A stretch of 63,996 nucleotides of DNA, counting the filler, from Reclinomonas americana ATCC 50394 (Eukaryota): the NCBI GenBank assembly GCA_048213135.1. It is 7 parts of 4 records of this genome, joined end to end, with 100 filler letters (N's around TTAATTAATTAA, not from the genome) between each part and the next. Parts side by side here need not be neighbours in the genome. Positions count along the whole stretch, not along the records: positions 9,265 to 18,853 come from PS015709.1; positions 18,954 to 25,030 come from PS015709.1; 5 more parts are not named here. One strand, 5' to 3'. The notes under the pieces are model-generated. The model saw nothing but the letters and a program-made list of their open reading frames with translations, made no database searches and was not told where the DNA came from. The translations under genes were made by a program, and so were the position numbers. Positions 10,804 to 19,299 of the stretch are shown one piece after another. Positions within the stretch are counted from its first letter, which is position 1. Every line of letters starts with the position of its first letter.

Positions 10804-13800
10804 TTACAACAATTTGGAGGTGAGCAACCAGCGGCGCACCAGTGCGCGGAAGCCCACAATCGAGTCCGCCGACGCCGGGTGCACCTGCAGCAGGGCGTAC
10901 GCCGGCCGTCCCATGGGCGACGGCACCTCCCCAGGTGGGTCTGTGGCGTTGCCCGGCAGCACCGTGGCATGCACGCGAATCACGGACCCCGAGCGTGGCA
11001 AGGCCGGCATGCCAGTGACAAGAATGAGGAAGCGACGCAAGTCGGCTTGCGACAGCTGCCCGATGACCTGCGCGCACCAGTATGTTGAGTGAAAGAAAAA
11101 CGAGGGGCGAGTGTGGAGTGTCCAACCTGAACAATATTCTGGGGGCCCGGCGACTGCGCCGCAAAGTCCTTGAAGCGCAGCGCATAGAGGACGTCGCGTG
11201 CATCCACGGCATTCGGCGCACACACCACGCTCTTCAGCTCGTACGAACCCAACTCGACAAATACCTCGGAGCGCAAACCGCAGCTCCAGCACTCGGTCAG
11301 GCCGTGACGCACCAGCTCAATGGCCTGTCGTCTCTCGGCGCCCAACAAGCGAGTACGCGCTCGACCACACACATACGCCAGCACAGTCGTCGAGGTGACG
11401 GGATCCGATCGCACTGAGGGACAAGGATGAGGAGCGAAAGGAAGAGAGATAGATGTTCGTCGTCCACTCACATGTGCCGGTCGGCAAGAACTCGCGCTCC
11501 ACCAACTCAAACGTAAGATTCGCCGGCAGCGGCAGGTAGCACAACACTTGAAGTGCGCGAGACAAGGTCGGATCCACCGGCTCCAGCAGCGTCTGCAACG
11601 CCATCCACACCTCCGGCGACGACATGGTCGATCGGAGGATGGTGGACAACGACGACGAACCAGTGGCAAGCACGTCCCAAAACACAGGCGCCAGCAGCGT
11701 CGGCGGCACCGGCCGACCGTCGCCCACGCACTTGGCGATGAGGTGACCGAGCTGCATCAGGTGGCGCTCGCACTCATCTCGCTGGCGCACCGGCATCGAC
11801 TGCAGCGGCACCGGGTACCACACGGCGCTGTCGGGCAGACGCTCGAACGCATCGCTTTCCACCAACAGGCGCAAAAAGAGCTGCGTGTTTCGCACAAGTG
11901 AGATACACAGTTGGAAAGAGGTGGGTGAATTGGTAAGACCTCTTCATAGAACTCGAGGACGCGGCCGCTGCGCTGCGGCACGTCGGTGAACACAACAGTG
12001 GTCGGCGCAATCCAGCTGTCCAGCGGCAGTGATTCGAGTGCATGCAGCGTAGTGCCCAGCATCGTTTCCCGTGTGACACGAAGTTGCTGCGGAACCATGG
12101 TGAACAAAATGAGGAGGAGGAGGCACAGAGACTGAACAGCGATCGCAGTACCAATCCAGGATCGTTGAGGCGGTGCAATTCGCGTGTCTGCACCACGCCG
12201 TGTGCAAATGCCGCAATCCGCGCTTCCTCGCCTGCTTCCACTGACAGCTGCTTGGTGAAGTACGGTTGCCAGGTGGTGTCGCGGGCGTAAATGCGGGAGT
12301 TGGGGATCGGGTGAAGCTGCGGGAGAGAGTGATAATAAGTACAAGAAATCAACTGTCGTGGCTCTCTCTCTCCCTGATCACCTCCACGTTGACATTCCTT
12401 CGTCCTCTCTCTACCTCGTGCTATGTTCTCTATCTCTGTCTCCCTTTCTGTCGGCTTGTTAATCTCAGCGCACATCTGCGTTGTCCTTTCCCTCGTCCTC
12501 TCTCCACTTCTGCCTCTCTTTACCTCTTCTCACGCTCTGTTATATTCTCTTTCTCTGTCTCTGTTTCTCCTTTTCTTGCTCGTCCTCTGCAACCATAACT
12601 CTGTTCACCTTGCCTTCATACTCACTCACTCGCTCACACAGTCACTTGTCCCTGTATCTCTACTTCCTTCTCTCTCTCATCCTCTCCACTTCATTCACCC
12701 TTCCGTCATTTCCTCTTTTCCCACTTAAGCACTCTCCATCTCCTTCTGTCTCTCTTTCGCACAACTCCACGTTGTTTTTTCTCATTTCTTCCTCTGTTCA
12801 CTTCTCTCACTCTCTCTTCCTTCTCTCATCGTTCTCCATCTCCGACTCGCCTCTGTTTCAATCTCCATCTCTGTCTCGCTCCTTGTTTCCATGTTGCTGT
12901 ATTCATCATGCATCTTTCTTCTTTCTCCGTACGACCCCTTCTCCATTCCGTCTGCTCACTTCTTTCCCTTTCTACTCACTCGATCACTCCCTCCCTCTTT
13001 CTCTCTCTCTCTCACTCTCACTCTCTCTCTCTTCTCCCTTCCCCACCCTCTCCCATCCCTTCTCCTTCTCGCTCCCCCGCCCTCTCCCCCTTCCCGCACC
13101 ATTGCCTGCAACAGCGGCACCGCATCCGGCACCGTGATGCTCGACAGCAACGGTCCGAGCATCACCTGCTCCGTGTTCACATCGACCACCACGGTGGCAT
13201 CGGCACCCGCAAAGGCTCGCAGCAGCAGCATGCCCGCCGCGAACACATCACTCGCCATGGTCGGCGACGCACCCTCCACATGCAGCTCCGGCGCCCAATA
13301 TTCCGGTGCGTTGCCCGGCGTGACTGCAAACGCAAAGTGGTGTTGAGCGAGAAGGGGAAAAGAGAAGAATAACTAAGTTAGGTGGCGAATACTCACCAAG
13401 TGGTTCGCCCTTCACCAGTCGTCTGGCCGTCCGCCCGATTCCCACCCCGACAATCACCGGTCGGCCGTCGGCCTGCACGAACACATGGTCGAGCGACAGC
13501 TCGCCGTGGACCAGCTCGCGAGTGTGCAATGCTTGCAGACCCTGGCAGACGAACGGCGTGAGTCACACGCAAAAGTAACGATTGGAGACTGAGGGTTCGT
13601 GACGTACGTGCAGAATACCGCGCATTACGCCGGCCAGATCGGCAGGTGAGCGCGTCTCTGCGGCCAGCCACTTGCGCAGCGTCACAGGACCGACGTACGG
13701 TTGTTGCAGGAACACGACGCCGTCCACGACTCCCGTAAAGAGGCCTTCGATGCGCATGACATTCGGGTGATGGAGGGCCGACAGATCGGTCACCAGTTGC

Positions 13801-18774: not shown

Positions 18775-19299
18775 ACAGACAAGCCAAGCGACACGAGATG
18801 TGAGTTGAGAGACAGAGAGAAGAGAAGAGCATCGGTGCTGGTCACTTACGCCTNNNNNNNNNNNNNNNNNNNNNNNNNNNNNNNNNNNNNNNNNNNNTTA
18901 ATTAATTAANNNNNNNNNNNNNNNNNNNNNNNNNNNNNNNNNNNNNNNNNNNNAGAAGAGCATCGGTGCTCGTCACTTGCACCTGTAACTGTCAACAAAG
19001 AGGAGGAAACATGCGATACAGACACACAAACCCGACTTCTCCTCAGCAAACCAACGACCAACCGCACCTTCATTGTACACAAACGGCGCCGTCAATCGCC
19101 GCAAGCCGCGCACAAACCCGCCAAACACGAGCATGCACCGATCGTTAATGGGAATGCACGCGTGACCCCATCGCCCTTCACAGTAAAGAACTCAGTGAAT
19201 TGTTCCGATTATTGAATGAAATCAATGCATGCAACTCACCGCGCGGCATTGCATCGTCGTGGGAAGAGGGTGAGCCGCTGGGAGAGGACGAAGAGGCGC
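10804..19299 (-). CDS. Large multidomain protein: Kelch repeats, unknown beta-rich region, coiled coil, pseudokinase, HECT-like domain (5' end in gap)
   Basis: Kelch: GRWGHACIPINDRCMLVFGG, ARGDLASV..FLLSGG, RWGHTAVLI..VLIFGG, GRAYHVALMI..MFLWGG, RLVILGG, ARAGHSCMMFGG. Kinase fold (~13100-13920): LHHPNVMRIEGLF...GILQGLQALHTRELVHGELSLDHVFV...SDVFAAGMLL. HECT (~10804-12100): LRVTRETMLGTT...LEFYEELF...LGHLIAKCVGDGRPV...RRFLILVTGMPALP. I saw no stop/start break between the parts, but single-gene status is inferred. Confidence 0.7.
18460..19000. repeat. Intronic GA-rich repeat, 3-4 copies of gagcatcggtgctggtcacttacgcct-like units
   Basis: Similar units at ~18555, 18682, 18827 and 18958, interspersed with (GA)n. 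Confidence 0.7.

Follow-up and report, generated by a model that had tools for sequence, protein, structure and literature searches.

A gene of Reclinomonas americana ATCC 50394 (GenBank assembly GCA_048213135.1) encodes, in a single open frame, a Kelch propeller followed by a beta-rich segment, a helical region, and then kinase and HECT folds; both enzyme modules are predicted from their residues to be catalytically dead. The gene lies on the minus strand at positions 19299 to 10804 of the window, the whole stretch of 63,996 nucleotides that was analysed and along which all coordinates are counted. It is one intact gene, and it has been shown to be under strong purifying selection in every domain. 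By descent and architecture, the gene is assigned to the TKUL-type family of kinase-HECT proteins, named here after TKUL of Leishmania mexicana.

Gene structure and conservation

The gene comprises 28 minus-strand exons, which run from 19299 to a stop codon at 10804-10806 and form a single open frame of 1528 amino acids. All 27 introns are of the GT-AG type, and the acceptors before exons 2-28 consist of 25 CAG and two AAG. Most introns (23 of 27) are 58-95 nt long, and the remaining four measure 772, 424, 420, and 783 nt. An independent spliced aligner, run with a profile that excluded the Kelch-kinase-HECT protein, exactly recovered the exons from 14363 to 11127, including the 783-nt intron, together with the last exon's acceptor. 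Upstream of 14363, a region of little profile signal, its exons differ from those drawn by hand. The least certain boundary in the model is the donor of exon 17 (14662).

Exon 1 (19240-19299, minus strand), as drawn from the exon model and the second gene copy on C24, encodes aa 1-20, comprising a Ser-rich leader and the first residues of Kelch blade 1. Its upstream edge is a splice acceptor, and ahead of its first ATG it differs from C24 at three sites, all synonymous when compared by eye. For these two reasons, a coding exon probably lies further upstream, in the assembly gap at 19643-20347, which would place the start codon outside the assembled sequence. The gap is a run of N that probably holds this exon as well as the beginning of a divergent plus-strand neighbour, and C24 is gapped here too. 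Since the gap separates the gene from that neighbour, probably only a short piece is missing.

In the searched assembly (108 Mb, 16,441 contigs), most genes are present twice, and the paired copies are read as two haplotypes because the flanking DNA matches as well. The second copy of this gene (G000:C24) has all 28 exons at equal length, keeps their AG/GT ends, and contains no internal stop. The two copies differ by 103 synonymous and six replacement changes (dN/dS 0.02). Synonymous and replacement counts are 24/1 in the Kelch region, 12/2 in the beta segment, 23/0 in the helical region (aa 486-825), 19/1 in the kinase, and 25/2 in the HECT-like domain. The resulting dN/dS values range from 0.00 to 0.05, with 0.014 for Kelch. 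Across the short introns, the copies are different at 99 of 1499 sites. In the last exon, the differences reach codon 1487 and comprise three synonymous changes and no replacement. For the kinase-HECT parts of paralog copy pairs, dN/dS is 0.017-0.065 in all seven pairs measured, a range that includes paralogs with intact motifs. The overall value of 0.02, like that of the paralog pairs, thus indicates that the dead domains are being kept.

That the exons belong instead to two or more neighbouring genes, or to a pseudogene, is very unlikely indeed. Such an error would be compatible with a gene that is known from DNA alone and whose start codon probably lies outside the assembly, and with the failure of the aligner to recover the exons upstream of 14363. 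However, introns of 62-68 nt span the domain junctions, and the four long introns fall only within the Kelch array or the kinase fold. A gene boundary in the purine-rich 783-nt intron (12317-13099, minus strand), delimited by the spliced aligner and by paralog intron positions, was ruled out, since the intron lies within the C-lobe of the kinase fold at a position and phase common to four of the seven paralogs compared. A pseudogene was rejected on the dN/dS of 0.02, which is low throughout, and on the lack of any stop in the 1528 codons of either copy. The single minus-strand exon chain drawn in the first-pass annotation therefore stands as one gene, with 28 exons in one frame, all of them copied in C24.

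The Kelch-beta head and the helical region

Exons 2-9 (16374-19175, minus strand) encode a six-bladed Kelch propeller (aa ~19-329) and house the 772-, 424-, and 420-nt introns. Pfam detects Kelch in three of the seven Kelch-region exons scanned, and the best PDB match of a Kelch exon is KLHDC2 (E 5e-6). Five blade starts follow from the repeat pattern (aa 19, 71, 186, 242, and 296); the sixth, near aa 136, was placed by eye. At the sequence level, the six repeats carry the Gly-Gly and aromatic positions of a Kelch propeller.

The propeller is followed by a beta-rich segment in exons 10-12 (15715-16305, minus strand; aa 330-485, core ~355-440), which may be Ig-like. Pfam gives no match for this segment, and Atlas offers Ig-like leads, with IPT/TIG or FN3 types considered, every one below 0.9. 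The nearest Kelch relative in the genome is C163/C493, with 52% identity on one exon. In C163/C493, the propeller is followed by the same beta segment, with a score of 98 against a mean of 26 and a maximum of 49 in 1000 shuffles. No kinase or HECT match was found in the three stretches surrounding C163/C493. The C163/C493 frame terminates in an acidic tail. Most simply, a Kelch-beta cassette would have been added to a helical-kinase-HECT chassis, a direction that is inferred. The roughly six Kelch blades noticed at first reading are borne out by the Pfam and KLHDC2 matches and the six starts, and the beta-rich segment noticed with them recurs after the C163/C493 propeller.

Exons 13-19 (14163-15649, minus strand) encode a helical region with coiled coil and the family linker that precedes the kinase (aa 486-840), as delimited by the exon model and a heptad scan. 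The description of this part as a long coiled coil is correct only in part. The whole of aa 486-840 appears helical by eye, but a crude heptad scan is positive only at aa 735-765 and 787-817.

Two folds without catalytic residues

Exons 20-24 (12152-14095, minus strand) encode the pseudokinase (aa ~868-1126) and the linker between kinase and HECT, assigned from family profiles and residue alignment. On single exons, Pfam gives only a weak Pkinase match (E 0.067). A family kinase profile without the row of this protein matches aa 868-1126 at 1.9e-55, and a profile of four external proteins alone reaches 5e-31. Here and for the HECT fold, the scores are single-sequence E-values, and the columns of the family alignment were derived with the row of this protein included. 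None of the five residues of an active kinase is present. The beta-3 Lys is replaced by Gln900, the alphaC Glu by Leu920, the catalytic Asp by Glu996, the catalytic-loop Asn by His1001, and the Mg-binding Asp by Gly1014. Additionally, the catalytic-loop Lys is replaced by Ser998. The APE motif is retained.

Exons 25-28 (10804-12086, minus strand) encode a HECT-like domain (aa ~1161-1528) that was likewise delimited by family profiles and residue alignment. Pfam does not match HECT on single exons, and exon 27 is unrecognised by Atlas. The family HECT profile without the row of this protein matches aa 1161-1504 at 1e-56, the four external proteins alone give 1.2e-31, and a profile of nine ordinary HECTs from the same genome gives 4e-9. 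No catalytic cysteine of the C-lobe is present in aa 1411-1528, and the last cysteine of the protein, at aa 1410, lies ahead of the C-lobe. The acidic/Gly motif of the N-lobe and the catalytic loop are eroded. A Phe near the C-terminus is a feature of active HECT E3 ligases, and it is absent from this domain. The E2-binding subdomain of the N-lobe aligns with that of the clade-mates, with an identity ratio of 0.86 (its identity to the three nearest paralogs divided by the identity among them, from three sequences and short segments). An alternative last exon carrying the cysteine was also considered and rejected: when positions 11200-7000 were searched with the C-terminal family profile, allowing for splicing, no end bearing the catalytic motif emerged.

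These results uphold the kinase and HECT folds of the first-pass annotation and agree with its view that both modules look dead. By the residues that define each enzyme, the protein is predicted to lack both kinase and HECT ligase activity. Residual or non-canonical activity is very improbable. The N-lobe would have to hold E2~ubiquitin so that ubiquitin passes straight to a client on the Kelch propeller, or a hidden splice form would have to supply the cysteine. The relative conservation of the E2-binding subdomain fits such activity, as does Glu996, a conservative replacement of the catalytic Asp. Against it stand a C-terminal stretch free of cysteine, a spliced search without a cysteine-motif end, a last exon without replacement changes as far as codon 1487, and the position of all six kinase residue changes inside exons.

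A family of kinase-HECT paralogs

At least 13 kinase-HECT loci are found in the genome, comprising 12 paralog loci and the Kelch-kinase-HECT gene. The survey combined searches of the organism's own genome with 40 further stretches around HECT matches and family loci. Six of the 40 have a same-strand upstream kinase, two of these being second copies of known loci. Like the Kelch head of the present gene, the heads of the paralogs are varied: C4421/C4533 carries LRR and C395 a macro domain. C80 has a weak ankyrin match (Pfam E 0.0055), and C41/C114 has WD40 by Pfam, on an exon chain drawn by eye. No head was identified for the remaining eight of the 13 loci. A TPR head was rejected for C89, where the upstream TPR gene stops at its own stop codon.

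The loci differ in their catalytic residues. The HECT cysteine is present in eight of the 13 and absent from three (the Kelch-kinase-HECT gene, C41, and C194b), with 11 loci scored. The catalytic Asp of the kinase is present in five and absent from seven, with 12 loci scored. Five loci have both residues, two clear loci and three metagenomic proteins have only the cysteine, and three loci have neither. Purifying selection was measured on members of all three catalytic states. The first-pass annotation had suggested looking for active paralogs, and members that look active from their residues do exist: C80, C395, and C4533 keep both the catalytic Asp and the cysteine.

A HECT tree was built from 17 kinase-fused rows with 14 ordinary HECTs of the same genome as the outgroup and a midpoint root. 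C54, C5226, and C270, which are poorly modelled or duplicate, were left out, and four long branches were flagged. A 100/99 branch separates all 17 kinase-fused rows from the ordinary HECTs, and among the 17 are the Kelch-kinase-HECT protein and P0015, a TPR-kinase-HECT protein of Leishmania martiniquensis. The architecture was not recognised at first reading, a view that no longer holds for the helical-kinase-HECT chassis, which groups with this TKUL-type Leishmania protein. Within the family, the gene nests with C80, C395, and C4533 (99/98). C194b pairs with C379 (94/97), which retains both catalytic residues, and C41 is unplaced. No group unites the three doubly dead members. The placement of the Kelch-kinase-HECT gene and C194b among active members suggests that the doubly dead state probably arose more than once, with C41 and C194b being long branches. 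The kinase tree gave little resolution, with only one of 13 inner branches starred. Of seven intron positions in the Kelch-kinase-HECT gene, four to six are shared with its clade-mates, three with C41, and one with three more distant members.

The HECT branch of the protein measures 1.29, compared with 0.38-0.92 for the three clade-mates. Such a long branch, together with the loss of the C-terminal Phe and the erosion of both the catalytic loop and the N-lobe acidic/Gly motif, would suit a scaffold without any link to ubiquitin, whose dead folds would have taken on structural or protein-binding roles in a different complex. This role is unlikely. The entire chassis remains colinear with active paralogs, E2-binding subdomain included, and aa 734-1479 align with the LRR paralog model at E 1.7e-112. 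Identity ratios, which again compare three sequences over short segments, are lowest from the HECT catalytic loop to the end (0.54) and from the kinase catalytic loop to APE (0.66). The ratio of the kinase-HECT linker (0.70) is nearly as low as those of the catalytic stretches, and the highest ratio (1.00) is found at the end of the coiled coil and the linker preceding the kinase.

Proposed function

Rather than being an enzyme, the protein may be a non-catalytic partner of an active kinase-HECT paralog, either its substrate adaptor or an allosteric subunit, a role that is plausible but short of probable. In its favour are the low dN/dS of every domain, the identity ratios that are lowest at the two catalytic stretches and highest at the coiled-coil end, and the placement of the gene among paralogs that keep the catalytic Asp and Cys. 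A Kelch-plus-beta-sandwich head would have been grafted onto a TKUL-type helical-kinase-HECT chassis, after which both catalytic centres would have been lost and both folds retained. Client binding would fall to the Kelch propeller. Through its helical region and its folded pseudokinase and pseudo-HECT, the protein would dock onto an active member of the clade, such as the LRR-, macro-, or ankyrin-headed paralog, which would supply phosphorylation and ubiquitin transfer in trans. In papers that cite TKUL, its kinase is described as an allosteric regulator, or switch, of its HECT ligase (PMC13196369; bioRxiv 10.64898/2026.05.08.723729). Regulation of this kind would be a reason to keep both folds packed without their chemistry. 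The same conservation pattern suits an inhibitor or a scaffold equally well.

An inhibitor would act as a decoy that binds E2~ubiquitin, the client, or a paralog without catalysis, and would damp or time the active members. The genome encodes a UBE2D-like E2 (P0016). Both catalytic centres are gone, yet the E2-binding subdomain keeps its ratio of 0.86. Moreover, double loss is seen at three of the 13 loci, which form no single group, as expected if dead regulators repeatedly arise from active paralogs. Such a role is nevertheless doubtful, as a pure inhibitor has no obvious need for a conserved head of its own, and the Kelch dN/dS is 0.014. The low value for the head also argues against a decoy engaged in an arms race with a parasite.

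A wider but distinctly improbable picture is that of a modular repertoire of receptors. Its kinase-HECT genes, at least 13 in number, would carry swappable heads, and doubly dead sensors that arose repeatedly would signal through their helical regions to active helpers. If true, this would be a division of labour like that of sensor/helper receptor pairs, built on a kinase-ubiquitin-ligase chassis. The family also forms a natural series of one chassis in three catalytic states, which makes it testable what role the kinase-HECT pair plays once its chemistry is removed.

Comparison with known systems

A profile search of 1.84 billion representatives returned eight fragments, none of which was shown to be an orthologue. 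One fragment led to a 1090-aa helical-pseudokinase-HECT protein, and a search with that protein led to five proteins. Among them is P0015, whose kinase matches PDB 9GMP, and we infer that it is the orthologue of TKUL. The Kelch-kinase-HECT protein is colinear with P0015 over aa 872-1473 (26% identity, E 4e-23). This link requires the joined model or the profiles, as BLASTP of a single HECT exon against P0015 gave no match (best E 1.7). Neither a HECT exon nor the helical exon of a paralog retrieved anything in word-indexed homologue searches. When metagenomes were scanned with the HECT exon, 235 pattern matches arose, none of them confirmed as a relative. Across the word-indexed, 1.84-billion-representative profile, and metagenome searches, no orthologue was found in another species. 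The primary study of TKUL, by Fokkens et al. (2025, Mol Cell 85:3711), reportedly calls the kinase-HECT module widespread in unicellular eukaryotes.

KLHDC2-type Kelch proteins are substrate receptors of cullin ligases. The present protein resembles them in having a six-bladed propeller tied to ubiquitin machinery, with KLHDC2 as its best PDB match, but here the propeller forms one protein with a kinase-HECT chassis.

The portions of a survey of HECT proteins that were available describe divergent, kinase-bearing 'GL-Bikonta' HECTs in Naegleria gruberi and Ectocarpus siliculosus, and Kelch-bearing HECTs in Ectocarpus (Grau-Bove et al. 2013, PMC3673628). By description, the helical-kinase-HECT chassis is probably kin to these kinase-bearing HECTs. 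However, neither Kelch and kinase in one protein nor a double catalytic loss is described in those portions (PMC3673628). The literature search returned no Kelch-pseudokinase-pseudo-HECT protein, although the figures and supplements of PMC3673628 may list such an architecture.

G2E3 is described in the same portions as having a non-functional HECT domain, with ligase activity carried by RING/PHD-like fingers (PMC3673628). Both G2E3 and the Kelch-kinase-HECT protein keep a non-functional HECT within a larger protein. Unlike G2E3, the latter shows no RING/PHD-like finger, and G2E3 has no kinase. In the available part of PMC7647121, the term 'pseudo-HECT' is used solely for two partial Leishmania domains. 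A literature search for a full-length natural pseudo-HECT acting in trans returned RING pseudoligases and no such protein. A conserved full-length pseudo-HECT would add a class to the known pseudo-ligases. Only the Kelch-beta head and the double catalytic loss had no counterpart in the searches made, and the known kinase-HECT core limits the value of the finding.

The closest comparison is with TKUL/HECT12 of Leishmania mexicana, which papers that cite it describe as a dual kinase and HECT ligase whose ligase activity needs autophosphorylation by the kinase (bioRxiv 10.64898/2026.05.08.723729; PMC13196369). Those passages contain no statement on heteromers of TKUL or any relative. The two proteins share the order head, helical region, kinase, and HECT, with the kinase directly before the HECT in one frame. 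They differ at the N-terminus, where Kelch and the beta segment take the place of TPR, and a small N-terminal piece of the present protein may sit in the assembly gap. They also differ in chemistry, since TKUL has both activities, whereas the Kelch-kinase-HECT protein lacks the catalytic residues of either. With both residue sets absent, a mechanism in which the kinase switches on the ligase would not be expected to operate in cis in this protein.

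Other members of the family

A WD40-headed gene (L083:1797-8145, contig C41 of the R. americana genome; second copy on C114) is a second propeller-headed family member in which both the kinase and the HECT catalytic residues are lost. It consists of WD40 repeats, a helical region, a pseudokinase and a HECT domain without its cysteine, the WD40 head having been joined to the chassis by eye reading only. Its dN/dS is 0.035. A third doubly dead member (L113:544-6400, contig C194) is sister in the HECT tree to the C379 member, which, unlike C194, retains both the catalytic Asp and the catalytic Cys.

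At L105 (C231:72500-82000), the N-terminal half of the kinase lies on the strand opposite to its C-terminal half and the HECT domain, which probably reflects a mis-oriented contig piece. At L106:8277-9230 (C89), the HECT model fails upstream of the catalytic motif.

Intron 2 of the Kelch-headed gene

Intron 2 of the Kelch-headed pseudokinase/HECT gene (window 18296-19067, minus strand) holds three to four copies of a repeated unit made up of an acceptor-like site with a donor-like site immediately after it. The units also occur in the second copy of the gene, on contig C24. They resemble cassettes for recursive splicing or micro-exons, but are not required for the Kelch reading frame.

Other features of the window and genome

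Three ORFs of 332-333 aa, spaced ~2.7-3 kb apart at window 46264-52969, all match the same galactosyltransferase and represent either a tandem array or an assembly repeat. Short AT-only spacers with N runs on both sides (8523-9221 and 18906-18950) mark contig joins within the scaffold.

Elsewhere in the genome, the actin family has 16 matches (L128-L130 and others), several of them clustered on C60 and C551; the single actin locus examined is divergent in sequence. A near full-length, intron-free E2 enzyme (L133, C15206:112-540) lies on a contig of 563 bases and is unusual for this intron-rich genome.

A kinase-free relative of the Kelch-beta head

A gene at L153:5290-8400 (contig C163; second copy on C493) encodes Kelch repeats and the beta segment, shows no kinase or HECT hit in the three stretches examined around it, and ends in an acidic tail. 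By sequence, it is related to the head of the Kelch-headed pseudokinase/HECT gene.
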